From a virus, in the IMG/VR virus record IMGVR_UViG_3300025154_000064, positions 24,975-88,974 of that record: 64,000 nt of DNA. One strand, written 5' to 3'. This document shows, piece by piece, positions 4,401-63,712 of the stretch. A model generated the notes under the pieces. It was not told the origin of the DNA. It worked only from the letters and a program-made list of their open reading frames with translations, and ran no database searches. How positions within the stretch are numbered: the stretch's first letter is position 1; each line of letters begins with the position of its first letter. A program made the translations under genes and the position numbers.

Positions 4401-5285
4401 AAGGACTTCCGGGATAAGACCATCGCTAATTACAAGGAAGGTTCGAATGATGCCATCGCAGCTGAGAAGGCCTATCAGGCAGCCGTTCTTAAGGTTGGCG
4501 AGGCTATCACGGATGAGGATGAGCGCCAACATGCGCTAAGGGTGCAGCAGACCGTAAAAGAGCTTAAAATGAAGCTGAAGATGGTGCAGGAATACTCGGT
4601 TGAATATTACCGGATCATGGAGGAGCTTCGTAAGCTTGATGAGATAGAGCCGATATCGGATGAAGAACGCCTCGCCGGATCGCTTGACTGGGTGGATGGC
4701 ATTAGGCTCGGGTTGATCCGTTCCGCAAAAGAGCAGAAAACCCAAGCGCAACACATTGCTGATATCTGGCAGAACGCAACGAATGCGATAGGCGATGGAT
4801 TCGGGACGCTTTTTGAGGATGTTCTGGTTGGGAAGGTTAAGAGCGCCGGTGACTATATCGTCAGCTTTTTAAGCTCTGTGGCCAAGTCGGTCAACAACGT
4901 TCTGGCCAACGCTATTGGTCAGGGGATAGCGACTACCATAGGCGGGATGTTTTCTGGCGGAAGTGCCGGCCAGAGCCCTTATGACTCTGGGATAGCCATG
5001 GCGCAGGGTGGATGGATAACCGAGCCAATCGTCGGCCGCGGTATCAACACCGGCAAGAGGTATACTCTCGGAGAGCGCGGCCCAGAGCTGGTCACGCCAG
5101 CCGGCCAAGTGCGGCCGGATTCATTCCCGCCGAGTGTTTCAGTCATAATAAACAATAACACAGGATCAAACATGAAAAGCCAGCAATCAAATGCCAGGTT
5201 TGATGGTCAACAGTGGGTTGTAACAACGCTGATTGATGCTATAGATCGAAATGTTAACGGCATAAGAGGCATGCTTGGCGGATAA
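1413..5285 (+). CDS. Tail tape measure protein (TP901 family)
   Basis: 1290 aa, Ala-rich and helical. TP901-type core (FDQALHNLQAIT...TKYTAQQVSDGMTLLGQAGLD...GTGLRQVLAKL) and C-terminal AQGG/GERGPELV motif. Confidence 0.95.
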   Translation: MGDKVQELGTRFTGDIKDISEKVRQLMALLNQLDTYSRTSSSILGQVTQKAIALNGAIAKTPVAKNFAQNKVMLSEFQLALGGATNESKKFQAALTTLGEGKTGIALKTIKSQLEQVERAIVKTAQKMKMLGQDGEKFFNETDRIKAFNDALAGKTRATATTTRTPVEPKAPSGFLDQIKNAARVTLAYGLVGSAIGSVAMAAKAGVGNIVEFDQALHNLQAITEATNDETSVMGNRIKQIASDTKYTAQQVSDGMTLLGQAGLDAAQATAVIGPAATLATGTLSKMEETVDLLSTTLVAFKMDAAEAGRVTDVMAAAVNKSKLTIEQLRTVFNYVGSSAHMIGMSIEELAASTMVLANTGLRASTIGTGLRQVLAKLLSPSEKLRESFEAHSISLDAVNPKVVGFQQAMKNMIPILWDVKKNTVDMSKAYELFELRGAQAAAVLVESFAGGRFKQAFEDTLEIGSAAEMAAKQSEGLGVMWDNLVAKAGVLAIALGDLGVVGAMKGVISVAGLLTDVMTDMASVTADAFDSLFNSTERQKRLAGEQVVENKAVVGSLKVYIEALKVTQKEVGTNNQVSTAHLSILKRLKADHPELADKIDLTKVSFNSLGTVIASVNRLMDEHNQKTMEGRLKKISLAESARAELDNLKAEAEKTKATIAALKPVSSAKGQGQNEINKSREMDIKYLEAHLKDIEDKIKLSTKSIDETVSEWSAEIANALKGSESPSMDIVDTMIGNMIRLGKVSEETGKKIRENVTAKLKAVAVDLDTSKFTTRIKTMGKDFDAVFKTLDPSKKLDFVEKFGALEKKIANIRKTYANTDIPGEDVEADIAAKKKAFLEEYLKKEADSSQKVVDNASQEAQKRIQIQEYYYATVARLTSDEHEKLEQERLKESESIKKQYEEAIAMANKTGEDKAAIKAKYDNLQDQNTKFYTQKGYDLDQKKSLELLDIEIIKRKQLAEQKKRDTLDDSGGLATIKANEAKVTIESLEQEMRIRKDFRDKTIANYKEGSNDAIAAEKAYQAAVLKVGEAITDEDERQHALRVQQTVKELKMKLKMVQEYSVEYYRIMEELRKLDEIEPISDEERLAGSLDWVDGIRLGLIRSAKEQKTQAQHIADIWQNATNAIGDGFGTLFEDVLVGKVKSAGDYIVSFLSSVAKSVNNVLANAIGQGIATTIGGMFSGGSAGQSPYDSGIAMAQGGWITEPIVGRGINTGKRYTLGERGPELVTPAGQVRPDSFPPSVSVIINNNTGSNMKSQQSNARFDGQQWVVTTLIDAIDRNVNGIRGMLGG

Positions 5286-5318
5286 AAAGTGTTGCAAAAT
5301 TCAAAAATAAATTATATG

Positions 5319-5426
5319 CAGGACAAAATTGAATTAAGTTTGTCCTGGCTGGCCACCTTGGACAAAAAAAATAGGGTATGATCGGGGTATCCATTTACTG
5401 ATCATACCTTTTTTTTGTCCAAGGTG
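5319..5426 (+). promoter_or_regulatory. Two tandem hairpins between the tape measure and distal tail genes; the second includes the next RBS
   Basis: CAGGACAAA/TTTGTCCTG (5319-5347) and CACCTTGGACAAAAAAAA..GGTATGATC / GATCATACC..TTTTTTTTGTCCAAGGTG (5354-5426). Confidence 0.6.
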
Positions 5427-5430
5427 ACTT

Positions 5431-5778
5431 ATGGCAGATGTAAATTGGCCCACCATAGAAGCACCCCATCCGGATCTCTTTTCCCAGAAGCTTATTAAAC
5501 CAAAGCACAAGACCGAGACCAGCAATGGCCGGCTGATTACCCGGGCCAAGTTCACTGGCTTCCGGTGGGAGTTTACTTTGGGTTGGGATATGATTTCAGA
5601 CAGCGATTACGAAGACCTTTATGAGTTCTTTGATTCAATGGGTGGTGGCGTATTTAATTGGACACACATCAAAACCGGTGTGGTTTATGAATGTGTCTTC
5701 CTTGACGACGAAATGCCGGAGGCCAAACCTTTTCATCTGCATTGGGAACTCAAAGGTCTAAGGATAGGTGAAAGATAA
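5431..5778 (+). CDS. Distal/minor tail protein (lambda gpM-like)
   Basis: Position after tape measure; motif LYEFFDSMGGGVFNWTH. Confidence 0.7.
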   Translation: MADVNWPTIEAPHPDLFSQKLIKPKHKTETSNGRLITRAKFTGFRWEFTLGWDMISDSDYEDLYEFFDSMGGGVFNWTHIKTGVVYECVFLDDEMPEAKPFHLHWELKGLRIGER

Positions 5779-6420
5779 ATGCTTCCTCTCGGAACGAATT
5801 ACCTTAAGGCCAAGAACAAGTTGTCGGATGACAACGCCTGGATTGTTCTGCTTCAGATTGATTTTGAAGATGAGACCTTGAGGCTATGCGCGAACAATCA
5901 GGATATCATATGGAACGGTGAAGAGTGGATCGCGTTCCCCTTCTCTCTTGACGTTATCAAAGATGCCACCAAGGATGAAGTCCCAAAGGTGGTCGTTAGG
6001 GTCGCCAACGTAAACCAGGCAGTCCAATACCATGTTGAACAGTATGCCGGCGGTGTCGGATCAGATGTGACCGTCCGGGTGATCTACACCGGTGACCTTG
6101 ATGAGGTCGTGAAGATACCGACGTTTAAATTCAAGGTTTCTGGGTGCCGGTGTGACGCCGTTTGGGCCACTTTTGAGTTGGGAGCCTCCTCTCCCTACTT
6201 GAGTCCTGATCCAAGGGATCGTATCCTGAAGAACTTTTGCCGGTTTCGGTTCCCGCATAGTTCAGACCCGCGGTGCCCTTATACAGGGACCGTATACACC
6301 TCGTGCAATAAAACCCTGTCTGATTGCAAACTCAGAAACGATGATGCGCTAACTGATAAACAGGATTCAAAATACTACGGCGGGTTCCCGTCGATGGGGT
6401 CCTATGCCATCTACCTTTGA
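5779..6420 (+). CDS. Minor tail tip protein (gpL/DUF1833-like)
   Basis: WNGEEWIAFPF; C-terminal four-Cys cluster (C..CPY..CNKTLSDC) followed by YGGFPS. Confidence 0.85.
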   Translation: MLPLGTNYLKAKNKLSDDNAWIVLLQIDFEDETLRLCANNQDIIWNGEEWIAFPFSLDVIKDATKDEVPKVVVRVANVNQAVQYHVEQYAGGVGSDVTVRVIYTGDLDEVVKIPTFKFKVSGCRCDAVWATFELGASSPYLSPDPRDRILKNFCRFRFPHSSDPRCPYTGTVYTSCNKTLSDCKLRNDDALTDKQDSKYYGGFPSMGSYAIYL

Positions 6421-18459: not shown

Positions 18460-18873
18460 CTATTCACGCGGGTTTGCGCCGTCACCATCTGCCACCACCT
18501 CATAGTTGTAATCTTTGCAGGCATATCGGTTCGCCACAACCTCCTCACGGGTAAAGAGATCTCTCACCCATTCACTATCAAACCGAAACCCGCTAACCGG
18601 ATTCACATCACCGACCTGCGCTTCCTCCCATTCTTTCGTTAATGGATGCTCAGGGGTGTTGTGTTGTGCCGGGTACCAATCATTCCGTTTGCATATGCGC
18701 TTGACTTTATCTCCAAAATAGATTTCATTCCCGAACATATCGACTTCGCCAGTCCACATTTTCGGTTCTGAGCAGAACTCTTCGGAGAATTTATAAAACA
18801 TGTCTGAGATATCGCGGGGTGTTTGAGCGTAAAAATCTTTCCAGTCCTTCTTCATTTGCGCTTTAAATTTCAT
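18460..18873 (-). CDS. YopX-like phage protein
   Basis: MWTGEVDMFGNEIYFGDKV resembles the YopX motif QxTGLxDxNGxEIYEGDI. Confidence 0.6.
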   Translation of the reverse strand: MKFKAQMKKDWKDFYAQTPRDISDMFYKFSEEFCSEPKMWTGEVDMFGNEIYFGDKVKRICKRNDWYPAQHNTPEHPLTKEWEEAQVGDVNPVSGFRFDSEWVRDLFTREEVVANRYACKDYNYEVVADGDGANPRE

Positions 18874-19979
18874 ATCGCATCCCTTTCCAATTTAACCACC
18901 TTCCCCCGTTCCATAAGTTCGCGCTTCCGAGCCACTTCCATTTTGGCATATTTACGGACGGATTCGAGCCGGGCATGGTCGGTGATTTGTTGAAGGTCCG
19001 AAATTGACAGACCTTTTTCGTTTATGTATTGTGAACACGATGAATGTTTCAAGCCGGAATAGAGGTCGATGCTTTCCCCAGCATCCCGGCAGGCCTTGTG
19101 CCAAATCAGATTTAGGGAATCGTTTGTGTATCGTTTCCCTGGTGATCTGGACCTCCAATTGACGAACAAGAATGGGCTACCCAACGTTCGCGCAATTGGC
19201 GCGAAATATCGAACAAACTCAGAATGGGCCGGGATGATATGTTCGACGCCGGTTTTAGTCCGTTCAACAATCCGTCGAGCGCTTTCCGATCGACGGATAA
19301 TAAAGATTCCATTCTCACGGTCCCAATCCTCCCATTTTAAAACGCATGCCTCTGCCGGCCGGCGCAGGTGATATTTCAGCCACAAAAAGATGGCCCGGTG
19401 CTCCGCCGGGATCGCGTCAATTATTGCCATCTGGCGGTCCTCAGGCAACCAGACGATGCTTGGTTCCTGAATCTGGTAAAGCCGTTTTTCCGGGAAGGCC
19501 GGGACCTCCGGGATGCGGCGCGATTTCCATGCGTATTTCAAGCACGCATGGAGGCAATACATCGTGTTTAGTTTGCCCTTACCGGTGCGCTTTATTGAGT
19601 TGAGGAGCATCACCAAAACGTCGAACTGGATCTCGTGCAACTGGAACGGATGCGCCTTGAAAAACGGCCCCAGGTGATTCCTTATTGAATTTTCGTAATC
19701 TTTGACGGTCGCCGGCGTCAATGTGGGGCGAACAGCGTTAAGCCATTCTGTGAGGTATGGGATGACATCGGTGAACTGTTCGCCGGTGAACTTTTCAATC
19801 CGAAAAATCCCGGCCTCTTGATCGGCCTGCATGGTAGCCAGTAGTTTGCCGGCGACCTTTTTATGGTACATCCTTTCCCCGCGATAGCGAGAAATAAAAA
19901 ATGATTTCTTGCGCTTGGCATCATACCATTTTACAAACCACCACCCTGAGTCTTTACGGAAATGGATTGATCCTTTCAT
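18870..19979 (-). CDS. int: Tyrosine integrase
   Basis: N-terminal arm-binding-like MKGSIHFRKDSGWW; SAM-like domain; catalytic R (LRRPAEA), K (TKT), YSGLKH, DHARLESVRKY. ATG 19979 preferred. Confidence 0.9.
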   Translation of the reverse strand: MKGSIHFRKDSGWWFVKWYDAKRKKSFFISRYRGERMYHKKVAGKLLATMQADQEAGIFRIEKFTGEQFTDVIPYLTEWLNAVRPTLTPATVKDYENSIRNHLGPFFKAHPFQLHEIQFDVLVMLLNSIKRTGKGKLNTMYCLHACLKYAWKSRRIPEVPAFPEKRLYQIQEPSIVWLPEDRQMAIIDAIPAEHRAIFLWLKYHLRRPAEACVLKWEDWDRENGIFIIRRSESARRIVERTKTGVEHIIPAHSEFVRYFAPIARTLGSPFLFVNWRSRSPGKRYTNDSLNLIWHKACRDAGESIDLYSGLKHSSCSQYINEKGLSISDLQQITDHARLESVRKYAKMEVARKRELMERGKVVKLERDAI

Positions 19980-20229
19980 GCAGACACCCCCAGTTGTTGT
20001 TAAACCACTGGGAAGGTTACTGTATATGGTGGACTTGGTCAACATTTATTGAATTTCAATCAATCGTCAATGGTATAGTCTATAATCGCTGCGACGATAA
20101 GGCTTAAGCCAATCACAATTGTGATAAAAAAGGTCCCAGCCACAATAAAGGTGCTTGTCGCGCCAGCCTTTATCATCCACCAGCCTGAGGCACAGGCGCC
20201 GCCGGCCAGCATCGGAACAAAAAGTCTTG

Positions 20230-39968: not shown

Positions 39969-40814
39969 TCACCACCCCATAGCCTTACCAACCCGGCGCC
40001 GAAGCATATCCGGCGTCGGGTGAATGTAAACGTTCACGATCGTATCCGGCTGGTCACCCAGTAGGAAGGCGATGTCCTTTATATCCATTCCGCCTTCATA
40101 ATGCAACCATGTAGCGACGTAATGCCGGAAGGTGTGGGGACCCCTCTCATCGGATCCATTCTTCAGGCCCAGGTAGGACAACATGTCCTTCACGATCTTC
40201 GCGCACTGGTCCTCTGACGGGAAGAGGCCGCCATCAACCCGGAGCAAAAGCTTTTCCATCAGCACCGCGGTCTCGGGCGAAAAGAAAACCGGCCGCGGCA
40301 CCGTCTTTGAATCGTTCAGCATGATCATTCGGGTTTCGATATTCACATCTTCGGCACGAATCAGCGACAGCTCTTTTATCCGGGCGCCGGTCTCAACCAG
40401 CAAGCGGACAAGGATCTTGTTGCGAAGGGTCTTGACGTAGCACTGAAGGGCCGCAAAGTCGTAGGCCAGGCACTTGGCAACGTCTTCCTCAGAAAACCAT
40501 CTGGCGAGGCTCTTGCGCTGGCTGTCCTTGCGTTCATCATGCGCGATCCGGAAGGAATAATCCGTTGGACACCCGAGCCACTTCAAAAAGTGTCTCACCG
40601 TCGTGAGACACAATTGAATTGAAGTGCCTTTCATGGTCTTCGACAGCTCGGTAGCGAAGGCGTGCATATCGAAGCTTTGGTCGATGATAATCCCGCCGGC
40701 GCGGCAATAATCTGAAAGTTTTTTGAGGGAGTTTTCGTAGCTCTTGAGTGTCTTGGTGCTGAGACTCTTCGTTTGGTTTATCGCTTCAAAGTACCGCTCT
40801 ATTTGCGGCATCAT
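39969..40814 (-). CDS. Second tyrosine recombinase (XerC/D-like, no arm-binding domain)
   Basis: ETGARIKE, SKT, PHTFRH, LLGD..VNVY. Confidence 0.9.
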   Translation of the reverse strand: MMPQIERYFEAINQTKSLSTKTLKSYENSLKKLSDYCRAGGIIIDQSFDMHAFATELSKTMKGTSIQLCLTTVRHFLKWLGCPTDYSFRIAHDERKDSQRKSLARWFSEEDVAKCLAYDFAALQCYVKTLRNKILVRLLVETGARIKELSLIRAEDVNIETRMIMLNDSKTVPRPVFFSPETAVLMEKLLLRVDGGLFPSEDQCAKIVKDMLSYLGLKNGSDERGPHTFRHYVATWLHYEGGMDIKDIAFLLGDQPDTIVNVYIHPTPDMLRRRVGKAMGW

Positions 40815-52900: not shown

Positions 52901-55722
52901 CTTTCCTTTGACAGCATGACTAAGAGCGCGTTGATGTGAAGCGCTTCGTGGTATTCCTCATCGGTAAAAAACGGATTATCCATAAACGTTCTCCCATGGG
53001 TCTGGCTCCGATTCAATTTCTTCAATCTTGATCCCGGTTAGTGTGAAGATATCAGCCCACTCGAACCCGCACCTATGGCAGTGTACGCCTTGAGAAATAT
53101 AGTCTCCACAATGGCTTGTACTCCCACTGTCTATATCAACGCTATAACACCGAGGACAATAGACGCCACCTTTGGCGAGATAATCTTCTTCCATTTTTTT
53201 ATAGTTCATTTCGGCAACCTCTCAATCCTGTTTTTAGCCTGGTCGAACTCGCATGGTGTCCAGCTGACAAGCTCTTCCTGTTCATCCACAGTCAAGCCGT
53301 CCAGGACCATTGCCATAAAAGGGTCGATCTCATGCGATCCCCAGAAGAAGTGTTGGTCTTGGGTTTTCATTCAAGCCTCCGGTCCTTTCGTGATGTCTAC
53401 CCGGTTGAAAGTGTAAATGTCGGTCCATTGCGATCCGCAATCGTCGCAATTCGCATCCTGGGTGACCTCGTTCATTCCCATTTCAAGGCAACCATAGGTA
53501 ATATCTGACGTTCCACACACTGGACAAGTTTCAGGTTCCATTCAAACCTCCAAAACACGGCTTTTGGCCTCATCGATATCTTCAGGTATGCTCGATCCGA
53601 TATCACTAAAGAGCTCCATATCGCCATAATATAAGCCATCGTAATAAATCAGATCTTCCACATATTTCAGTGATTTGTGCTGAAAGAATTTGTCGAGAGT
53701 GTGTATCCAACAAGCATAGGTAACCTGAACATTCTCAAACGGCCCGAAGAACGGCCCAGATGCACCCCAGGCATCCATGTCTTCGGTAACTGTTTTTCTT
53801 CCATGATAAAGATGTATATAAATTGCCATCACTCCCCCTCCTACCAGTCACACTGGTTCTGCCACGCGGCCTCATCCACCCGCTCGGCGATCATAATGGC
53901 GCACTCATCGCAGATTTCGCCTTCGTTGCACTCGTTCTCGCCGCAGAATTCGCAGATGGTCATAAGCACCCACCGCAGCACCCATGGGGCACGACTTCAT
54001 TAACCTTCTTGAGAACTTCTACCCTCAAATCAAACGGAAAACCGGCCGGCCATGGATGAATTTTCCACTCGCCCTTGGCTATATGATAGTCTCCATAACC
54101 AGCATTAATGGTACGTCCACCAGATACAAGGCAGTCACCAAACTCCCACACACAGCCATTGATAGTTACGATCAGGTTTCCATCGCAAAGCTTTGGCCAT
54201 GCCCCATCATAGTTGATCTCAATCATCGGTCCCCCTTTGGTAGCCTGCACGGAAAGTCACTCTTGAATAGCGTCGAGAAGCCGGCCTGAAGCGTTTGAGG
54301 TATCACGCTACCCACATTTCCCTTCTCTTTCCATGGACCGTATTTGTAACCATACCGCGTTTTATCTTGAAATCTCATGAACAAAACGCCATCGCTTCTT
54401 ATCGCGGCCTGGATCAAGCCATGTATCCCGCCGGCGTATTTGGCTAAGACTTTCATCGAACCTCCTTAACCCAGAAAAGTGTGCCACATAGGATGCACCG
54501 ATGGCGGGATACCTCGAACACTTCATCCGGAATAAAGAAATCGAAATCCCATATCCCAACATTAACGCTTTCTCTGTTTATCTCAATCGCATCGCCACCG
54601 CATTTAGGACAGTTCATGCCGCCTCTCTTTCTGCATCTGACCATGCATCCAACATGTTGACGATACCCTCCAGCGCTCTCCTCGCATCAGACGTCATATC
54701 GCCGCCGGCACAGACCTCTCCAAGAATAAGCCGCTGCTCTTCAAGGTAATCCACATTCACGTTTTCGAAGGTGATAGCACGGTGTTTGGGAATGATAATG
54801 GACCGAGCGTTGACGGTTGTTCCCAAACCAGGCGCCGGTCGAAGCGTTTCGCTGAAAGCCTCCCACTCTTCCTGAGTCGGAACAGATAGGTTATATTTCT
54901 TTTCATTACCCGATGCCAGCCATCCTGAGCAATAATCGCCATGCTTCAGGATGAGATAGAACGCATCTGGGTAGTCGGAAGGTGGTTGCCATATTTTGGA
55001 CATGCCTTTCTTGCGGTCCATAATTTTTGTGCAAGCAGTGCACCATGGTTCACAGTCACCAAAGGCAGCCGCTCTTTTCCCGCACTTCGGACATTCCCAG
55101 GCTGGCGCGTAAATATACTCACCCTTAATGTGGCAATCCACAACACACCCGGGATCGCCCGCCGTCATCCGGACAGAAAAACGAGCGTTGCATTTGTCGC
55201 AATAGATGGCCGCGTGCGATACAGAGGTGAATTTCGAGTGCCCACATACCGGGCAGGTTAAGGCGTCCCACTCGAACGGGTTGAATCCGCCGATGTTCTC
55301 GATACAGAATGTCATACCCCCACCTCCGCATCTTCCAGCGCACGACGTCGCGCTACCAATGCCAGAGTCAACGGCTCGATCTGCTCCCGGCACCACAGCT
55401 TCGCCATCATTTCGGCCAAAAACCATGTCTGTGCGCTGAAAGTTTTCTCCATCACACGAACACCCGGGAAAACTTTCTCCCGTTAGCCCCACATCGAGTG
55501 AAGCGGGTGGCCGCCAATAAGAACGCGCTCTCCAAACCGCAATGATTCATGAAGCTGAAGGTTTTCGTCAGCAGGTAGGCACACAGCGCCGGTAACGGTT
55601 ACCAGATCACCAAGGATTGGCTTCTGTTGGCCTAAGCGGTCGGTTGTAAGCCGGGCGTGAAGGTCGTTCCCAAGTTTTACGGATATTAATCTCATGCTAT
55701 TCCTCCTTAAATTCGGTTCCAA
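49902..55722 (-). other. Cluster of small leftward hypothetical genes, many with zinc ribbons (e.g. 49902..50186, 50186..50941, 50938..51264, 51249..51614, 51604..52269, 52451..52735, 52738..52984, 52976..53209, 53371..53541, 53542..53832, 53960..54226, 54223..54456, 54453..54617, 54614..55315, 55483..55695)
   Basis: Contiguous, translationally coupled ORFs; no family recognised with confidence. Starts approximate. Confidence 0.6.
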
Positions 55723-56224
55723 ATATTATTTTAAAGTGGATAGCCTGCTTTTCCCTTGCGGCATCCCTTGCGGCATCCCTTGCGGCATCCCTTGCGGCAG
55801 CCCATGCGGCATCCCTTGCGGCATCCCTTGCGGCAGCCCTTGCGGCATCCCATGCGGCATCCCTTGCGGCAGCCCATGCGGCAGCCCATGCGGCAGCCAA
55901 CTCTTCTTCTGAAGCTTCACCGTGTGCAAAAAGGTGCACAGTTCTCACAGCGTCACGGCTTCTTTTATCTTCCATGAGATGCAAAATATCCTGACAACAA
56001 GCCACGGCAAAGAGTCTGTATCTCTTCGCAATATCATCCCCTTCGAGTGCCGATTTGGGGACCCATAACACATCGTTAAGCCCATTAATTTCCAGAATCT
56101 TTACAAGCTGGATGGGTGTCTCGTCTTTAAACCCTCTACCAAGACCTTTCTTCAGATGCTTGTAGCGTTCGGTGCAGGCTTTCGCCTCTCGCAATTTCTT
56201 TAATGTCGTGTAGGGTATCATCAA
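55697..56224 (-). CDS. Phage protein with Ala-rich tetrapeptide repeats (AAWA/AARD)
   Basis: N-terminal LKKLREAKACTERY..RLFAVAC; C-terminal (AA[W/R][A/D])n. Confidence 0.8.
   Translation of the reverse strand: MMIPYTTLKKLREAKACTERYKHLKKGLGRGFKDETPIQLVKILEINGLNDVLWVPKSALEGDDIAKRYRLFAVACCQDILHLMEDKRSRDAVRTVHLFAHGEASEEELAAAWAAAWAAARDAAWDAARAAARDAARDAAWAAARDAARDAARDAAREKQAIHFKIIFGTEFKEE
55753..55898. repeat. 12-bp coding tandem repeat CCC(T/A)TGCGGCA(T/G), about 12 copies
   Basis: Directly visible; encodes the tetrapeptide repeat. Confidence 0.95.
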
Positions 56225-57123
56225 AAATGCTCCAAACTCCTAATGGTTGCCTCATGCTTTGCGCACGCATAAGAGTTCACATGCTCCCGCAGCGCCGCCG
56301 TGACCACGATCTTCGCCAGCACAGCTTCATTCGGGTTGTAATCGGCAGGATCAATCGCGCCGCTTCTCCTATATCGCAAGATCGTAATGCGAAGGTCATC
56401 TATCACCCGCTCAAGCAGCTCGTTTATCTTTTCCCCGTGTCCCATCTTCTGCCTCCATGAGTTTCGACCAGCGGTTTCTCAAATCCTCAGCCACCAAGTA
56501 GGCCACAAACTTCTGCATATCTGGGTCGAAGTGCTTGTGAACAACAAAAAAGGCGCCAATAAGGTTCCTGACGGCGCGGATCTTCCACGGGTTGGCTTTC
56601 TTTTCCTTAAGTTTATCTTCCAGCGCCGCCAGCAGTGCCAGTGTGAGCGAGGTGTAGTTCTCGATTTCCATGTCCTGCAGGTAGTTTTGGAAGGCATCAA
56701 GGATTGCGTTCAGCCGCTTCATGCCGGCGGAATCCAGCTGGCCAGGCCATTGGGTAAAGGCATGGTCGCATGAATGCTTGACGGCCTTTAACGCACCGGA
56801 AAGTTCCATCAAATCGTCTTCTGGTAACTTTTCCAGCAAGGTGTTCGCCTGTGATTCGGCGATCGCAAGAACGGCAATGGTGTTTATGAAGGCTGTGCTG
56901 GCCATTGCGCCTCCCTTCCGGCTTGTTGGAACAGGTCAGCTGTTCTTTCCGGGTCGATTTCAACGAGGTCGCCTTGATAGATGTAGGCAGGACTATCGCC
57001 ATCGATTACCGTGTTGTGGTCGCAGTCCTCGTCGTAATCGCAGATGGTCACATCAACTTCCGTGTTGGTGACGATAGACGTGATAACTCCGCCTTCAATG
57101 GCGATCCAAATTTTTGGTTTCAT
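56221..57123 (-). CDS. Three hypothetical proteins (56221..56445, 56411..56905, 56884..57123)
   Basis: Overlapping ORFs with RBSs directly downstream of the array locus. Confidence 0.6.
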
Positions 57124-57155
57124 AGCTGGTTCTCCTTAGGGTTGGGATTCTGGGA

Positions 57156-57179
57156 CACCAAGGCGCGAGGGCCTTGGTG
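57156..57179. promoter_or_regulatory. 9-bp hairpin immediately 3' of the last array unit
   Basis: CACCAAGGC-gcgagg-GCCTTGGTG. Confidence 0.6.
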
Positions 57180-57181
57180 GT

Positions 57182-57334
57182 TGGTACGCAAGAACCATCT
57201 GTGGTTAAAAGCTGAAGTGGCTCGCATACGAATCCTGTGTTTGAAATACTTCTTGGCTCGCAATTTAATCATGTGGCTAAAAGCGTTTTTGGCTCGCATT
57301 CGGATACTGTGTTTAATTATTCATCTGGCTGTCA
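57182..57334 (-). ncRNA. TIGR-like dual-repeat guide array, segment 4 (4 units of 36 nt)
   Basis: Plus strand: TGGCTCGCA-like at 57182, 57218, 57254, 57290, 57326, alternating with TGTGTTTAA-like at 57200, 57236, 57272, 57308; all spacers 9 nt and unique. Confidence 0.88.
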
Positions 57335-57338
57335 AACA

Positions 57339-57989
57339 TCAATTAACCATAGGCTGCACTGGCCGCCCGGCTGGCGCAACCGCCATGCCAACGTCGTAAG
57401 CTGTCTTGGCCGCAATCAATGCCGCCTTCAACTTTTTGATTTGCTCGTGCTGCTCAATGATGGTCCGCTCTTGTTCGGCGATGATCTCATCCTTCTGCGA
57501 GAGCTGCCTCATCAGGCTTTCAACCGTCGGTTTGGCGACCACTGGTTCCTCGCGCTTGGCCTTCAGTTCCGGCTTCTCGTGCTTTGCGATGACCTTCTCG
57601 ACAAGCGCCGGCGTGACTTTCTCAATTGGAACAGATGCCAAGTCGTTAAAGACTTTTTCTTTTCCGACGGCGCCACACCGATGGTGCGCTGCAATTGGGA
57701 TAGACGGACCATACTTCACAGCCTCGACTGGTGCGCCGATAAAGGCGAGCTTGAGGTCACCGTACCGGCCTGGGGAAAGGTCGAACATGGTTTTCACATA
57801 TTCGTTAAAGGATGCGTTCTTAAATCTCGGGTTTTCCCTGAAGCGCTTGGTGTAATCCAAGTAATACAACGCACGGATGAAATTCTTCTGGTGCCTCAGC
57901 TCAAGAATTTTCTCACGTGCCGCTTCGGTTTCGATCTGGGTAATGGATCTGGTGTCATACTTTTTTTTCAATTCTTCGATAGCTTGCAT
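57339..57989 (-). CDS. Uncharacterised protein nested between array segments (helical N-terminus, C-terminal coiled coil)
   Basis: 216 aa, RBS AAAGGA; NASFNEYVKTMFDLSPGRY is HTH-like; heptad-rich C-terminus. Confidence 0.8.
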   Translation of the reverse strand: MQAIEELKKKYDTRSITQIETEAAREKILELRHQKNFIRALYYLDYTKRFRENPRFKNASFNEYVKTMFDLSPGRYGDLKLAFIGAPVEAVKYGPSIPIAAHHRCGAVGKEKVFNDLASVPIEKVTPALVEKVIAKHEKPELKAKREEPVVAKPTVESLMRQLSQKDEIIAEQERTIIEQHEQIKKLKAALIAAKTAYDVGMAVAPAGRPVQPMVN

Positions 57990-58014
57990 TGTTTTTTTCC
58001 TTTTTTGGGTTTGG

Positions 58015-58312
58015 GGTGACGCATTGGCAAATTGTGTTTAAATGGAACCCTGGCTCGCAAAATGATGATGTGCCTAATCCAAAGTTTGACTCGCAATAAT
58101 TTTCTGTGTTTAACTTTCCAGCTGGCTCGCATCCTCAAGCTGTGTTTAAAAAAAATAGATGGCTCGCAACCTCGGATCGTGTTTAATTTTGGCGCTGGCT
58201 CGCAAACGTTTTTTGTGATTAATCGTGAAAATGGCTCGCAAAGTACCAATAGGGTTAATCTTCATAATGGCTTGCAGGTTCATTGTGTGTTTAACCGGAA
58301 CAGTGGCTTCCC
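58015..58312 (-). ncRNA. TIGR-like dual-repeat guide array, segment 3 (8 units)
   Basis: Edge repeats at 58015, 58051, 58087, 58123, 58160, 58196, 58232, 58268, 58304; loop repeats at 58033, 58069, 58105, 58141, 58178, 58214, 58250, 58286. One spacer is 10 nt (A-run). Confidence 0.92.
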
Positions 58313-58348
58313 CGGTGGCCACCAACAGACGACCACCCAGTACTTTCT

Positions 58349-59206
58349 TTATGCCTCTACCAACTCTTCCACCTCAACCTCGATATCTTTCTTAAAATAA
58401 AACGGCTCGATAATCCCGGTATGTCCCAAGATCGTCCCAGCATAAGGCTCGCTGACCGGCTTCCCGTCAAGCGTCCGCGCGACGGTCCAGAAGTGGGACA
58501 AAAATAACTTCACCGTCTCGTGCTTCGCCATGTTTAAACGATGGCCTTTGGTGGCGTCCGGATGGGTCCGTTCACGTTTTCGCTTGGAAGCTTCCAGGAA
58601 GGTTTTATACTGTTCGTCTGCCGGATGCCGGTTAACCTGTTCGCCAAAGTGATAGGTAACTACCCGGCCGCGGCTCGACCAGTCCGAGACGGTTCCTTTC
58701 TTTCGCTTCGGCATCTTCCCGTCAATGACGTGCCGCCCCATGTAATGCCACCACCCGGAAATATTGGCGAAATCCTTCTCTTCAATGGCATGATGGGTGT
58801 GGCCTTCGCCCTTGGCGCTCTTCTGGCAAGTCGAGCACCAGAAGGTGTTGAAAGATTTGCCTTCCTCCTCGACAGCTTTCTTCTCAAGTTTAGTGCCGCA
58901 CTTCTCGCACACCGGCGTGAAGCGGTAATAATAGAGCAGGACCAAATTCCCGGCGATGAAAGGGCCGGCACCAGGGACGTGCTTCAGCCACTCGGTCCAG
59001 ACCGGATAAAATTCGAGGTCCTTTTCGATGTTCCGGGACAGCTTGCCTTTAATACTTTCCAGATTCTTTATGAGGTCCTGGTGTTTCTCGCTGGCATCAG
59101 GGTTCATCGACCCGAGCCGGTTTTTCGTCGAAACGAGCATCTTGCAAAGGTCATCATAGGTCCTGCAATTGAAGCTTAAATTTCTTACTACCATTTCGTC
59201 TATCAT
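58349..59206 (-). CDS. Nop/IS110-C-terminal-like RNA-binding protein (TasA-like) with a CxxC-x20-CxxC insertion
   Basis: 285 aa from ATG 59206 (RBS AAAGGA). Coiled-coil N-terminus; WLKHVPGAGPFIAGNL; DFANISGWWHYMG; KRKKGTVSDWS; GHRLNMAK..KLFLSHFW..R..DGKPVSEPY..LGH. No DEDD/RuvC domain. Confidence 0.85.
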   Translation of the reverse strand: MIDEMVVRNLSFNCRTYDDLCKMLVSTKNRLGSMNPDASEKHQDLIKNLESIKGKLSRNIEKDLEFYPVWTEWLKHVPGAGPFIAGNLVLLYYYRFTPVCEKCGTKLEKKAVEEEGKSFNTFWCSTCQKSAKGEGHTHHAIEEKDFANISGWWHYMGRHVIDGKMPKRKKGTVSDWSSRGRVVTYHFGEQVNRHPADEQYKTFLEASKRKRERTHPDATKGHRLNMAKHETVKLFLSHFWTVARTLDGKPVSEPYAGTILGHTGIIEPFYFKKDIEVEVEELVEA

Positions 59207-59282
59207 GCTGTTTTTCCTTTGTTGTTTTGCCGTAATAGTACGGCGGTTACAGAGTTGGTGCCGCAAAAGCGCGGCGGTTTTT

Positions 59283-59363
59283 GGTTAAGCATTTCCTATT
59301 TGTGTTTTAAAAGGAAAATGGCTCGCAAGACATTAATGTATTCAATTTTCAAAATAGCTCGAA
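59283..59363 (-). ncRNA. TIGR-like array, segment 2 (2 degenerate units)
   Basis: ..GCA-TTTCCTATT-TGTGTTTTA-AAAGGAAAA-TGGCTCGCA-AGACATTAA-TGTATTCAA-TTTTCAAAA-TAGCTCGAA keeps the 9-nt register. Confidence 0.7.
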
Positions 59364-59466
59364 CATCTTTTATTCCTGTTTGTTTCTCACATATGATCTT
59401 TCCAGATCTAAACCTATCTCTTTGACGCATCTTTTCGCGGCTTTTAAATGTTTTAGTACATAGCAT
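59296..59466 (-). CDS. Possible small basic ORF (56 aa) starting in the gap between array segments 1 and 2
   Basis: RBS GAGGTGG; MLCTKTFKSREKMRQRDRFRSGKIICEKQTG...; 3' part overlaps array units. Confidence 0.3.
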   Translation of the reverse strand: MLCTKTFKSREKMRQRDRFRSGKIICEKQTGIKDVRAILKIEYINVLRAIFLLKHK

Positions 59467-59483
59467 CTTTCCACCTCATGATA

Positions 59484-59726
59484 TTTGTTTAACCGATTCA
59501 GTTGCTCGCACTGGCAAGTTGTGTTTAAAATCAAACCTGGCTCGCAAGCTGGGTATGTGTTTAAAGAACGTCCTGGCTCGCAAGCCTGATCTGTGTTTAA
59601 TAAGGACAATGGCTCGCACAACAAGCCTGTGTTTAACGGCCGGAATGGCTCGCAATTGCTTTTTGTGTTTAATTTCATGGCTGGCTCGCAATCTGTTTCT
59701 GTGTTTAATCGAAACTTTGGCTTATC
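59484..59726 (-). ncRNA. TIGR-like dual-repeat guide array, segment 1 (6 complete units plus a half unit)
   Basis: Edge repeats at 59502, 59538, 59574, 59610, 59646, 59682, 59718; TGTGTTTAA at 59520, 59556, 59592, 59628, 59664, 59700; exact 36-nt period. Confidence 0.95.
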
Positions 59727-60399
59727 CCCAGAGCGCCATGACAGCACCAGCACCCAAAGTACAGACGCCAACGCACATCGCAATTTCTTCAAAGTATTTG
59801 CGCAGTTTCTTTCCCAGAAAATCCGGCAGGACCACCCGGCCAGGCGCGAACCCGGTTTCCACCAGCCGGCCGCGTTCCCGGTAACTTCGTGGCACCCGGA
59901 TTGAGGCGCCGTTTTTCGAAACGACGGTAATGCTTTTGTCCGATGTGGCCGTAACGCCTTGAATTTCAAAGCACATGGTCATGGTTCCCCCCAAGGATGT
60001 CGTTCTTTACGAGTTTCAGAATTCCGGCCGCCAGATAGGCGTCGGCATAGGCGTCAACGCAATCTCTATCCAGGCCGCGCCGGATGATGGTCTTGGCCGT
60101 CTCATGGACAGACGGATTCGCCATCACGCCTTCAATGACGTTCATAGTGTCTTTCGATACGTAACGAAGGTTTAGCATTCTCAACAGTCCCTTCCCCATC
60201 GCTGGGTGATAAGAATCCGGCGCTTGGTTCGCCAGAAGTGCGGACCGTCCTGAAAATATCTTCCAGGACCGCCATAATAGGCGCCTCTGATCCCGATCTC
60301 GATCATAATTTCCTCGTCGGCCTGATCGTTGTTTTTCAGCAACCACCAGGCCAGGCCGGAATCTTCGTACTTGTCCCAGTATTTCACGCCTTTTTTCAT
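59722..60399 (-). CDS. Three small hypothetical proteins (59722..59982, 59966..60178, 60181..60399)
   Basis: Coupled ORFs with RBSs directly upstream of array segment 1. Starts approximate. Confidence 0.55.
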
Positions 60400-60449: not shown

Positions 60450-61895
60450 TTAAGGTTTTTCCTTCGGTCTTACGGTAAGGTTCGGCTTAAAATAGACGCT
60501 CGCGCCGAGCTTCCTTGAATCTTTTAGAAGGTTCTCGACCCATTCCCATTCGGGTTGGGATTCCAGTCCGCGACTATTACGGCTTCTGCCACCAACAATC
60601 ACCCAATCGACTCTGAAGTCACTCTTCAAGGTAATGGGTTCAAGCATAGGTTCACATGACAGGAAGAGAATGTTGTCGATATCTTTAATTTTCTCGAAAG
60701 CCACGCCGGCCGAATCAGCTCTTGCCTGCGTATCGGCTGTTGCACCCAGCAAACAGTTCTTCGGAAACTCAAAGTCGGCATAGCGTGCCGGGTTTTTCGT
60801 GAGGAATAAAAAATTCCATTGCGGGTTTTCGCCAACAACTGTCAGCACGCTTTCGATCCACTCATCCGGCACCCAAGGGCCAAACAGGTCAGCCATGCTG
60901 CAAACGAAGACATTGTTATCCAGCACGCCCGGGGGGACTGGCGTATTCGCCGCCGCGCACAGCCTTTCCGGGTGAAACGTAGGCTCAAATGTGCCATCGA
61001 ATCTCATGCCGATATCGTAGGCATAACAATACTCGCACCCATATTTACATCCGGTTACCGGGTTCCACGAATATTTGGCCCACTCGATATTTCCATTGGT
61101 GACGTTGAATTTCGATGTCGATCTTGTTATCTCTTTCTCTTTAATTTCCTGCATTGCCGCGTTAATGGTCTTGGCGCCTGCCTTAACCTCCTCGGCAATT
61201 TCTGGATCAGCTTTTTCGATAGCCTTCGCCATACCGACCATCTTCCCGGAAACGCCTACGGTTTTCGCGGCCTGCTCGCGGGATTCGTTCTCGTGCCGTT
61301 TCTTTGTGAGGTCTTCAAGCCAATTCGTTTTTGACGGGTATGGTTCCGGTTCTGGCTTTTTCTTGGCTATTGATTTAAGCCAGTCATCGCTTCCGGGGTT
61401 TGGTTCCTGTTCCTGATTTTTAGGTTGCGGAATAACCCAAGGCTCTTTGGGTTTTATAACCGCTTCCGGAAAATCTTCCGGAAGCGGTTTGCTGCCATAC
61501 ATACCTGGTCCGCTTGTAGCCTGCCGATCCTTAGCCATCGCCGCATACATCTTCTCCACCTCGATAGCCAGGAACGCCCTCTGACTCTGGTTCAGGTGCC
61601 GGCGGTTCAAGTTTTCCGAAAGGACATAGGCGATCGGATCTACCGGATTAAATTCCTCGATACGCACGTCATTTTCAACATCAATTGACGCGCATAGCCT
61701 ATTCCGGCCATCTATCAGCAGTCCGGCAGATGTAACCCGTGCCGGATGAAGGAAGCCGTTTTTCCTGACATCTTCCACCAAGGCCAAATATTCTTCATCG
61801 CTCATCATCGGCATTAAGTTCGCCGCCGGATGTACCCCAGCCAGATCATAGAGTCGAACAGCTTCTTCTAATTTTTCTTTGAAATTTATTGGCAT
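60450..61895 (-). CDS. ParB/Srx-like domain fused to a DUF5131 (phage Gp37/Gp68, three-Cys) domain
   Basis: N-terminus HPAANLMP..LIDGRNR..SENLNRRHL; C-terminus IEWAKYSWNPVTGCKYGCEYCYA, VFVCSMADLF, LTKNP, LSCEP, WVIVGG. Confidence 0.9.
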   Translation of the reverse strand: MPINFKEKLEEAVRLYDLAGVHPAANLMPMMSDEEYLALVEDVRKNGFLHPARVTSAGLLIDGRNRLCASIDVENDVRIEEFNPVDPIAYVLSENLNRRHLNQSQRAFLAIEVEKMYAAMAKDRQATSGPGMYGSKPLPEDFPEAVIKPKEPWVIPQPKNQEQEPNPGSDDWLKSIAKKKPEPEPYPSKTNWLEDLTKKRHENESREQAAKTVGVSGKMVGMAKAIEKADPEIAEEVKAGAKTINAAMQEIKEKEITRSTSKFNVTNGNIEWAKYSWNPVTGCKYGCEYCYAYDIGMRFDGTFEPTFHPERLCAAANTPVPPGVLDNNVFVCSMADLFGPWVPDEWIESVLTVVGENPQWNFLFLTKNPARYADFEFPKNCLLGATADTQARADSAGVAFEKIKDIDNILFLSCEPMLEPITLKSDFRVDWVIVGGRSRNSRGLESQPEWEWVENLLKDSRKLGASVYFKPNLTVRPKEKP

Positions 61896-62782: not shown

Positions 62783-63712
62783 TCAGGCCGCCTTTGCTCT
62801 CGCAGCTTTGTATCCCAAAAGCTCACTATCCAGCCGTGCGGAAATTTTCTTCATACTCTTGATAACGTCCTCAATTTCCGTAATGCGCCGGCTGTTACAA
62901 TTCACCAACAACCCGGCCTTGTCATCGGCAAAGGGTGTTTCCCGGAATTTCGCCATAGCGGCAAAGAGCTGGCTGAAGGCGGATTTGGCCAGTGCTTTGT
63001 CTTTGTTTGTTTCCACCGGTTTAGCCTTATCCAGAAGGCTCAACTGGGCCTCTTTTTCAAGGAACACTTCTATGTGTTTCAACATGCTGGCAACATCTTT
63101 TCCGCGCCGTGACACATCATAGCATTTCATAACCCGGCTCGGCTTCACAGTGGCCAGTTTTCTGGCAACCGCTTTAGGCAACCGGCCAGCGTCAAATTCG
63201 CGTAGCAAAATTTCGGGCAAGCCAAGTATCGGCAAATCGGCTTTGAGTGTCGTCAACGAAGTCCCAAATGCCTTGGCGCAAGTTTCCAAAGGAATGCAAT
63301 GGACGTTGACGGCCTTGTCGATCGCCTTGAGAGTTTCCAAAGCTCCCATATCCTTCCGAACGGCGTTATCCATGATCTGGTCCACAAAAATGTCACCATC
63401 AGTCTCTTCTGAATAGTCACAGATCTTCGCTTCGATTTCCAAGCCATCATCACCGGCACGGAAACCTTCCCTTTCGCTACCATCCCAGTACATATTCACA
63501 TACAGGGACACCGCCGTATAACGACATTCCCCATTGACTATCCAGTACCGACCAGGAATGTCCGGGTTTTCTCTTACATGAATTGGGTTCTTTAGACCCC
63601 TTTCCGCAATAGAGACGGCCAGTTCATCCCGCAGGTATTCCACGGGTTTGGTTTTTCGTGGTTGATGAATATCCGGGTCGATCGCGCTGATTTTAATGAA
63701 TTGAGTTGCCAT
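62783..63712 (-). CDS. ParB/Spo0J-family protein
   Basis: HQPRK..LAVSIAERGLKNPIHVR..IVNGECRY..DNAVRKDM, followed by an HTH. Confidence 0.9.
   Translation of the reverse strand: MATQFIKISAIDPDIHQPRKTKPVEYLRDELAVSIAERGLKNPIHVRENPDIPGRYWIVNGECRYTAVSLYVNMYWDGSEREGFRAGDDGLEIEAKICDYSEETDGDIFVDQIMDNAVRKDMGALETLKAIDKAVNVHCIPLETCAKAFGTSLTTLKADLPILGLPEILLREFDAGRLPKAVARKLATVKPSRVMKCYDVSRRGKDVASMLKHIEVFLEKEAQLSLLDKAKPVETNKDKALAKSAFSQLFAAMAKFRETPFADDKAGLLVNCNSRRITEIEDVIKSMKKISARLDSELLGYKAARAKAA

Follow-up and report, generated by a model that had tools for sequence, protein, structure and literature searches.

The locus at positions 57182..59726 of the window (the whole analyzed stretch of 64,000 nucleotides) raises the question whether a phage carries here an RNA-guided DNA-binding system of the TIGR-Tas type, and what its components are. 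TIGR-Tas systems were already published in 2025 (Faure 2025). They are compact, PAM-free, RNA-guided DNA binders whose roles and targets in nature, like the acquisition of their spacers, are still open (Faure 2025, Xu 2026). The locus is part of a virus contig (88,974 bases, estimated completeness 85%) on which tail, integrase and replication genes are present as well. We regard it as a dual-repeat TIGR-TasA system of a tailed phage, including the mechanism described below, with a probability of roughly 0.88. Sequence, fold and family matches to TasR and TasH, together with an array anatomy as published (Faure 2025), are thus in agreement with an earlier note on this DNA that had proposed a TIGR-Tas-type system. 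The locus is typical of an already known family, the picture of which it leaves unchanged.

A fuzzy regular expression of the form AGCCA-N9-TTAAACACA-N9-TGCG, allowing up to 4 substitutions, identified 20 minus-strand units but no plus-strand unit. A pattern scan with up to 3 mismatches found 19 matches, all of them on the minus strand, versus 0.05 expected, and this number was reached by none of 100 dinucleotide shuffles. Each unit of 36 nt is composed of the edge repeat (TGCG/AGCCA), spacer A, the loop repeat TTAAACACA and spacer B. The same arrangement in 36-nt units, an edge and a loop repeat each followed by a 9-nt spacer (A and B, respectively), is known from the dual-repeat TIGR-TasA system FpTIGR of Flavonifractor plautii (PMC12045711).

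The units are distributed over four segments, each of them encoded on the minus strand. Segment 1 (59471..59722) contained six perfect 36-nt units (59722-59507) followed by a degenerate seventh, terminal one (59506-59471). Segment 2 (59288..59359), which overlaps a doubtful 56-aa ORF (59296-59466), consisted of two degenerate units with 3 and 2 repeat substitutions, respectively, which are probably decaying remnants. Segment 3 (58020..58308) starts with an edge repeat that is 5'-truncated, 40 nt past the stop of tasA, comprises eight units and is closed by a 3'-truncated edge (TGCG) immediately ahead of the ribosome-binding region of a second gene, here referred to as the partner gene. Segment 4 (57187..57330) starts 8 nt past the stop of the partner gene and carries four units, one perfect and three with 1-2 substitutions in the loop; it also ends with a 3'-truncated edge. 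In total, the segments are located within 40-520 nt of tasA or the partner gene, with every unit on the coding strand. Segments 1, 3 and 4 were observed to have truncated edge repeats at their ends, as in the published dual-repeat arrays, which begin with 5'-truncated and finish with 3'-truncated edge repeats (Faure 2025, PMC12045711).

The minus-strand reading and the regular expression both confirmed the 6+2+8+4 = 20 units counted in the earlier note; the number rises to 21 if the degenerate terminal unit of segment 1 is included. A phage equipped with about 20 guides, as stated there, is therefore found, with 20-21 units on the virus contig. The strict 9-9-9-9 register described at the same time had to be abandoned, because one unit of segment 3 (58164-58128) is 37 nt in size and has a 10-nt spacer A. 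By-eye counting revealed perfect repeats in 10 units, and substitutions were present in the repeats of 11 of the 21 units. Tandem Repeats Finder detected segment 1 alone (period 36, rows 59520-59722). CRISPR-Cas arrays have a single repeat of 25-36 nt and spacers of like size and are accompanied by cas genes; here, two 9-nt repeats alternate and are separated by 9-nt spacers. It was correctly noted before that the arrays represent neither a simple tandem repeat nor a CRISPR array. PADLOC gave no match for the six neighbouring proteins except for a DUF5131 protein, and no Rfam family matched between 56500 and 60500.

In TIGR arrays both repeats start with UG (box D) and end with CCA (box C), with a Watson-Crick pair between. 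The edge repeat TGCGAGCCA is canonical in this respect, with a UG start and a CCA end like the published arrays. The loop repeat TTAAACACA differs from that of the described dual-repeat TIGR-TasA systems (UG..CCA; PMC12045711) in carrying UU..ACA instead. This form was found in 18 of 21 units (by-eye count) and in all four segments. Relatives of the locus have the loop TGAAACCCA or a sequence near to it, and the T-A combination occurred in one of their 488 unique units. Since the edge is canonical and the loop is not, the two repeats of this locus do not covary; edge and loop repeats almost always do so according to Faure 2025 (PMC12045711). The U2-A7 pair could stand in for the G2-C7 pair. 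As the change is uniform across the four segments and could keep the base pair, it suggests selection rather than decay.

The gene tasA (58349..59206, minus strand) is an intact ORF of 285 aa, co-oriented with the arrays, in which all family-invariant residues are kept. In a phmmer search the protein matched the TasR chain 9mty_A with an E-value of 2.8e-28 and TasH chains with 1.7e-3. The NCBIfam model NF052498 (TIGR_Tas_endo) matched with an E-value of 9.4e-24 and 84.6 bits, the curated cut-off being 100, and PHROGs labels the family as 'transposase' (phrog_4285, E 4.3e-18). The structure prediction that had been proposed for 58349..59206 was carried out with AlphaFold and resulted in a model with a pLDDT of 86.8. 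In Foldseek, TasR was the top match (E 7e-11), followed by TasH (~1e-6) and IS621/ISCro4 (4e-3 to 2e-2). VIA-align likewise placed TasR first (Z 21.7, 201 residues, 2.8 A; model 4-272 corresponding to chain 110-322), then TasH (Z 19.9) and the IS110-family recombinase ISCro4 (Z 15.5), while all others among the matches listed had a Z of at most 8.6. Over the aligned parts the identity was 31% to TaTasR and 20% to SpTasH. A co-oriented 285-aa gene with Nop/IS110-like motifs, as it had been recognized from the sequence, hence proved to encode a Nop-type domain in a fold like that of TasR and TasH.

The N-terminus of TasA forms a coiled coil (helices 4-34 and 44-64), which is followed by the Nop-type C-terminal domain. 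Coiled coil and Nop fold are shared with TaTasR (PDB 9MTY) and SpTasH (PDB 9W03, 21KL and others), which differ from TasA by an additional RuvC or HNH domain. In the sequence alignment residue 15 of TasA lies opposite residue 119 of TasR, and residues 1-109 of TasR have no counterpart in TasA in either the sequence or the model alignment. The N-terminus also agrees with that of 37 relatives. TasA is therefore a nuclease-free Tas protein (TasA subtype) without an N-terminal RuvC or HNH domain, and DNA cleavage is consequently not expected.

Two residues known as the catalytic pair of pre-tigRNA processing in SpTasH, Y289 and H296 (NAR 2026), align without gaps to Y255 and H262 of TasA, so that the positions of the processing residues are the same in both proteins. 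Y255 was invariant in 38 of 38 relatives, and a histidine was present at H262 or at most one column from it in all 38 rows (by eye). A C-terminal Tyr/His loop, arrays on either side of a nuclease-free Nop-domain protein and a phage-borne location are further features in common with the dual-repeat TIGR-TasA systems (PMC12045711). In comparison to these, TasA carries an insertion of about 50 residues in the Nop-type domain (approximately residues 94-143), a beta-hairpin with the four invariant cysteines C100, C103, C124 and C127. The word 'zinc' does not occur in the main texts of Faure 2025 and Xu 2026.

A Nop-type RNA-binding domain and the logic of tandem guides are also shared with the IS110/IS621 bridge-RNA recombinases and with archaeal box C/D Nop5. 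The former differ by a DEDD domain and a single bridge RNA, whereas the guides are arrayed here; the latter works with fibrillarin or L7Ae, neither of which is a partner at this locus. A relation of Tas to Nop5 has been described (Faure 2025, PMC12045711); Nop5 was not among the 50 VIA-align matches listed, which were filled by coiled-coil matches.

The nearest relative of TasA (P0001) has an identity of 89%. In a period-36 survey, TIGR-type dual repeats were present on the tasA strand in 54 of 71 loci, and from these 54 loci 608 units were extracted, 488 of them unique. In most of these loci the edge repeat was the same, and the spacers differed in all of them. Those relatives that have been binned hint weakly at Desulfobacteraceae or 'Deltaproteobacteria' MAGs. 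The usual order of elements is [array]-tasA-array-partner-[array]. A division into four segments with genes between them, which had been considered unusual, is thus the common layout of the TasA clade, and in the operons reported by Faure 2025 (PMC12045711) arrays likewise lie between tasA and a partner gene as well as upstream and downstream of them. A search for the clade motifs detected members of the clade in Data S1 of that study; none was found in the searched part of its Table S1.

The partner gene (57339..57989, minus strand) is an intact ORF of 216 aa, co-oriented with tasA. It was present in 52 of 68 tasA loci, or 37 of 50 after removal of redundancy, in the orientation of tasA and nearly always parted from it solely by an array. 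The family comprises 359 cluster representatives at an E-value of at most 1e-3. The N-terminal domain of the protein (about 140 aa) could not be placed in any family; a coiled coil follows at the C-terminus. Searches of Pfam, PDB, PHROGs, NCBIfam and PADLOC retrieved coiled-coil matches only. No ParB, HTH or DUF3102 match was obtained in Pfam with 15 and 72 family members or in profile searches of the PDB, and hhalign against the ParB-like protein of the window itself gave a probability of 0.7%. The neighbours of the partner in the protein atlas included DUF3102 and Plasmid_parti_N clusters (0.91-0.94), which serve as leads only. DUF3102 (PF11300) was detected neither in the phage nor in 3 MAGs and 301 genomes, but as it was missed in the control genomes as well, this carries no weight. 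Word-indexed homolog searches returned 3 and 5 proteins, none of them with Pfam labels, and none of 50,697 phage records was matched in tblastn. The AlphaFold model from the single sequence was poor (pLDDT 60.5), and the predicted complex with TasA scored 0.01 compared to a mark of 0.32, a result that weighs neither way.

The partner gene probably corresponds to the 'tasParB' described by Faure 2025. As in the tasA-tasParB operon, tasA regularly shares its operon with another gene in the same orientation, the dual-repeat arrays lie between both genes as well as upstream and downstream of them, and the C-terminus of the partner is suited to dimerisation, here by a coiled coil. Two differences exist: the repeats are 10 nt there and the conserved blocks 9 nt here, and the ParB homology was not reproduced for the partner of this locus. 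The two families are probably identical.

Combining these data, the system would work as follows. Transcription of the four arrays, tasA and the partner gene would run along the minus strand and probably yield one or a few long transcripts. TasA dimers would hold each 36-nt unit through box D and box C at the ends of its edge and loop repeats, and the Tyr/His dyad of the C-terminal loop would cut the precursor within the edge repeat (TGCG/AGCCA), judging from the homology to SpTasH. In each resulting 36-nt tigRNA, the two spacers should recognize an 18-bp DNA site by pairing with opposite strands, spacer A with one and spacer B with the other, as is known for the family. Given the lack of a nuclease domain, the expected outcome is binding, DNA bending and a steric block leading to repression instead of cleavage. 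Binding, bending and repression were demonstrated for another TasA (Xu et al. 2026). The coiled-coil partner, encoded between the downstream arrays, probably works with TasA at the bound sites.

Different explanations for the locus have to be considered. The name 'transposase' of the PHROGs family (phrog_4285), the structural relationship to IS110-family recombinases (Z 15.5) and the open frames that cross the arrays, since 36 nt equal 12 codons, could point to an IS110-type mobile element with bridge-RNA-like guides, to a CRISPR array or to a protein-coding 12-codon repeat. An IS110 transposase combines a DEDD/RuvC-like domain at its N-terminus with a single bridge RNA, but TasA begins at the coiled coil without such a domain, and Tas structures match it far better than IS110 structures. 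Two alternating 9-nt repeats with 9-nt spacers are not the one repeat of 25-36 nt of a CRISPR array, and the retention of the repeats among relatives that have no spacers in common is at odds with a protein repeat as well as with a single bridge RNA. We consider this group of explanations extremely improbable. Slightly more weight, although still very little, can be given to a decaying and non-functional TIGR remnant that is merely carried by the phage. The intact ORFs of tasA and the partner gene, the family-invariant residues that are all present in TasA and the 10 units with perfect repeats are not what a remnant would show. Segment 2 with its two degenerate units, the substitutions in 11 of 21 units and the deviation of the loop from the family consensus would be in line with decay, but the loop change is uniform over four segments (18 of 21 units) and the base pair could persist.

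A more serious, though still doubtful, alternative concerns the division of labour. TasA and its tigRNA would only mark sites, and the partner, as a ParB-like or other DNA-binding coiled-coil dimer, would do the biological work, such as spreading and silencing, the pairing or partition of phage genomes, or assistance to an integrase. The conserved position of the partner in 37 of 50 non-redundant loci, the size of its family (359 representatives), the atlas leads to DUF3102 and Plasmid_parti_N and the published operons in which arrays separate tasA from a ParB-like gene (Faure 2025) argue for it, and the phage holds two integrase genes and two further ParB-like genes besides the partner gene. 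Opposed to this are the missing ParB or HTH match of the partner in Pfam, PDB profile searches and hhalign, the repression of transcription by another TasA alone (Xu 2026), and eight non-redundant loci with a TasA of the Cys4 type and no partner. Several of the latter are cut contigs; in one (L021) the flanks are full and the partner is still absent. Somewhat more speculative is the idea that the TasA clade with the Cys4 insertion and its coiled-coil partner of about 210 aa form a distinct two-protein TIGR subtype with the partner as the real effector. If this were true, tigRNA and TasA would merely address DNA sites for the partner. For instance, a ParB-like partner would be loaded at sites chosen by an RNA guide and not at a fixed parS-like site, resulting in programmable silencing or partition, and the UU..ACA loop would mean that pairing alone, not the base identities, is required for box C/D recognition in this subtype. 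The TIGR-TasA system described here offers a nearly complete phage context for about 21 guides, a nuclease-free TasA and a conserved partner. Both the role of the partner gene and the question of box C/D identity versus pairing only could reasonably be tested on it.

Competing elements or host genes, put forward in the earlier note as targets, would be candidates. Possible targets within the phage were searched for with the 21 guides in both half-site orders and on both strands of the 88,974-base genome. No self-target with at most 1 mismatch was present. One was found with 2 mismatches (mean of the shuffles 0.2, maximum 1) and six with 3 mismatches (mean of the shuffles 3.8), both not above chance. 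The 488 unique guides of the relatives gave 8 matches to the phage with at most 2 mismatches, compared to 3-8 in each of 5 shuffles.

A promoter and terminator scan of the locus gave no signal above shuffles. Among the listed sequencing runs that contain this DNA, none is recorded as RNA, and the runs compared with the locus covered small parts of it. Directly past the last array, a G+C-rich hairpin is located at 57156..57179 on the minus strand; its stem measures 9 bp, and it lacks a U tract. It was not called by the terminator scan; its folding z-score was -2.64, with 1 of 200 shuffles folding equally well. This hairpin may represent the transcript end or a processing barrier.

Both a fuzzy regular-expression search and a separate pattern scan recovered the array units of the locus. 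The 36-nt units (AGCCA / 9 nt / TTAAACACA / 9 nt / TGCG) run on the minus strand from 59722 to 57187. The first search yielded 20 units, all of them on the minus strand, and the second gave 19 matches at ≤3 mismatches against 0.05 expected, a number reached by 0 of 100 shuffled sequences. Four minus-strand segments were distinguished. Segment 1 (59722-59507) consists of six perfect units and a degenerate seventh extending to 59471. Segment 2 (59359-59288) holds two degenerate units and appears decayed. Eight units are located in segment 3 (58308-58020) and four in segment 4 (57330-57187). These counts and coordinates agree with the earlier note (6+2+8+4 = 20). The strict 9-9-9-9 register described there holds overall with one small correction, as segment 3 includes a 37-nt unit with a 10-nt spacer A.

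The edge repeat starts with UG and ends with CCA, corresponding to the box D and box C of Faure 2025 (PMC12045711). Its positions 3 and 6 (C and G) are able to form the extra pair described in the same paper. TIGR arrays are reported there to combine two alternating repeats of 8-12 nt with 9-nt spacers, in 5 to 15 units up- and/or downstream of a Nop-domain gene, and to give rise to RNAs of 36 nt through cleavage midway along the edge repeat. Judged by its sequence, the window locus fits this definition. Since 36 nt equal 12 codons, open frames of 59-199 aa traverse the arrays (59476-59691, 59370-59969, 57968-58249 and 57120-57299); gene callers may label them repeat proteins. Directly 3' of the last array is a hairpin with a 9-bp stem that lacks a U tract, and no signal stood out in a promoter and terminator scan of the locus. 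This hairpin (57156-57185) recurs with small indels in longer contigs of two sequencing runs (X7 and X9) with both flanks unlike the window, and may be a short element common to different genomes.

Between the arrays lies a 285-aa ORF on the minus strand (58349-59206), previously proposed to encode a Nop-domain protein. No Pfam family scored above threshold, and its assignment comes from TIGR-Tas proteins, matched by sequence, NCBIfam and predicted structure. The protein matched the solved TIGR-TasR chain 9mty_A with an E-value of 2.8e-28, TasH chains with 1.7e-3 and the NCBIfam entry 'TIGR-Tas system RNA-guided endonuclease' with 9.4e-24 (84.6 bits, under the cut-off of 100). A structure model built from a 38-sequence alignment was confident (pLDDT 86.8, pTM 0.84). 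Foldseek ranked TasR on top (E 7e-11), followed by TasH and the IS621/ISCro4 recombinases. An exhaustive VIA-align search gave Z 21.7 for TasR (201 residues, 2.8 Å), 19.9 for TasH and 15.5 for ISCro4; the remaining rows (Z ≤8.6) matched the coiled coil only. The alignment of the model with TasR starts at residues 4 and 110, respectively, leaving the TasR RuvC domain without a counterpart; the nuclease domain is thus absent, and the protein is a TasA. In SpTasH a Tyr/His dyad, Y289 and H296, carries out pre-tigRNA processing (NAR 2026); in an ungapped alignment these residues fall on Y255 and H262 of the window protein, and Y255 is invariant across the 38 aligned sequences.

According to Xu 2026 (bioRxiv 10.64898/2026.09.09.750476), dual-repeat Tas proteins retain a compact Nop core. 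The window TasA carries a beta-hairpin insertion of about 50 residues (94-143) in which C100, C103, C124 and C127 are invariant, as seen in the alignment and the model. We found no mention of this Cys4 insertion in print, and the word 'zinc' occurs 0 times in the main text of Faure 2025 and of Xu 2026. Members of the clade itself are included in the seed alignment published with the first description of the system (Faure 2025, Data S1).

Among 833 candidates, 215 TasA homologs were found at E ≤ 1e-3, and loci were retrieved from viruses (54), metagenomes (17) and genomes (4). When the 71 viral and metagenome loci were scanned for period 36 and a consensus was derived for each, 54 showed dual repeats of the TIGR type on the strand that encodes tasA. 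Their edge repeat is mostly TGCGAGCCA, identical to that of the window, and their loop repeat mostly TGAAACCCA. In an HMM-based layout survey of 72 sources (these 71 loci and the window) a tasA ORF was present in 68, of which 52 carried the partner gene as well. With TasA sequences merged wherever they were over 95% alike, the partner was found in 37 of 50 loci; several of the remainder are cut contigs. It was co-oriented with tasA in all sources except one, and the operon layout is conserved with the usual order [array]-tasA-array-partner-[array]. Arrays split into three or four segments are seen repeatedly (e.g. in the relative loci L014, L044, L050, L057 and L059). Split arrays are therefore the norm of this TasA clade, and the earlier view that a division into four segments is unusual does not hold.

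Two of the relatives are of note. In L040 (1-10855) the repeat pair is A/T-rich (TATAAATCA / TTAAAATCA), the partner gene lies upstream of tasA, and there are two tasA-like ORFs, at 32-946 and 4977-5867. In L047 (4663-6493), the sole case without co-orientation, tasA is present as two truncated pieces, one on each strand, which flank or overlap the partner gene on the opposite strand; this locus may be rearranged or misassembled.

By eye count, 18 of the 21 units in the window have a loop repeat that departs from the family consensus, with T instead of G at position 2 and A instead of C at position 7. A pattern search collected 608 units from 54 loci of relatives, and among the 488 with unique spacer pairs the T-A combination occurred once. 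If the pairing bases are assigned as we infer, the change would replace a G2-C7 by a U2-A7 pair, in keeping with the TasR structure, where box D and box C are joined by a Watson-Crick pair. The edge and loop boxes of the window are thereby unlike each other, whereas Faure 2025 describes them as almost always covarying. Forty units of relatives have A at position 6 of the edge repeat, 37 of them together with T at position 3, and this covariation supports the putative 3-6 pair; 'paired' percentages arise partly by construction, because the collecting pattern limited the allowed letters at several positions.

The partner ORF (216 aa, 57339-57989, minus strand) aligns with ORFs between the downstream array segments of relatives. 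Its family profile found 359 cluster representatives at E ≤ 1e-3, 237 of them at ≤ 1e-30. In an otherwise poor model the C-terminal coiled coil reached a pLDDT of 83-92, and coiled-coil families were matched. This agrees with the predicted C-terminal dimerisation of TasParB, the ParB-like tasA operon partner of Faure 2025, and the gene is probably TasParB. ParB, HTH or DUF3102 domains were found neither in Pfam scans of 15 and 72 family members nor in PDB profile searches, and hhalign against the window's own ParB-like protein gave no ParB match. In a protein atlas the N-terminal 145 residues lie near DUF3102 and Plasmid_parti_N clusters (scores 0.92-0.94; 13 of 30 named matches are DUF3102), a proximity we regard as a lead only.

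Within the partner gene, 57513-57772 is matched by an identical contig of 225-246 nt, one each in three sequencing runs from separate other studies (X6 is labelled wastewater, X7 and X9 groundwater) that contain nearly no other DNA of the locus. Candidate explanations for this recurrence of about 240 nt with 0 differences include a relative at low coverage, a module that recombines, and the way in which the matching runs were found.

Array anatomy and Tas homology agree with the published system, and the earlier identification as TIGR-Tas type was correct and careful. The system type was published in 2025, and the window locus adds another member; the points of interest left are the partner protein, the Cys4 insertion and the compensated but asymmetric box change of the loop repeat. 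Arrays, tasA and partner would be co-transcribed from the minus strand and the precursor cut at TGCG|AGCCA. In the TIGR family the tandem spacers pair with both DNA strands, and RNA-guided repression by a TasA has been reported (Xu 2026). The window TasA would bind DNA without cleaving it, with some role for the partner protein.

The 21 guides of the window had no matches above chance in the phage's own genome, nor had the relatives' guides. Because composite sites are only 18 nt long, chance matches would swamp searches of large collections, as Xu 2026 likewise remarks. Four binned relatives are labelled Desulfobacteraceae, 'Deltaproteobacteria' (two) and Proteobacteria, and the runs in which the window DNA is complete carry the label groundwater metagenome and may be where it comes from.

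The virus contig of 88,974 bases encodes a tape measure protein, a tail fibre, PhoH, a helicase, a primase and two integrases. The integrase-like genes (18870-20045 and 39969-40814; phrog_1, E 4e-32 and 1e-31) are relevant to the published idea that DNA bending by TasA might aid integrases. Upstream of the TIGR locus and on the same strand are two ParB-like genes. One (60450-61895) codes for a protein of 481 aa in which a ParB-like N-terminal domain (phrog_12047, E 5e-13) is fused to DUF5131 (E 3e-34); this protein has further matches to PDC-M41B and PDC-M30B, candidate defence proteins in PADLOC. The other spans 62783-63712. Finally, 12 copies of a 12-nt tandem repeat (55752-55895) inside a 175-aa ORF (55697-56224; phrog_18326, E 4e-38) code for a four-residue repeat rich in Ala, Trp, Asp and Arg.
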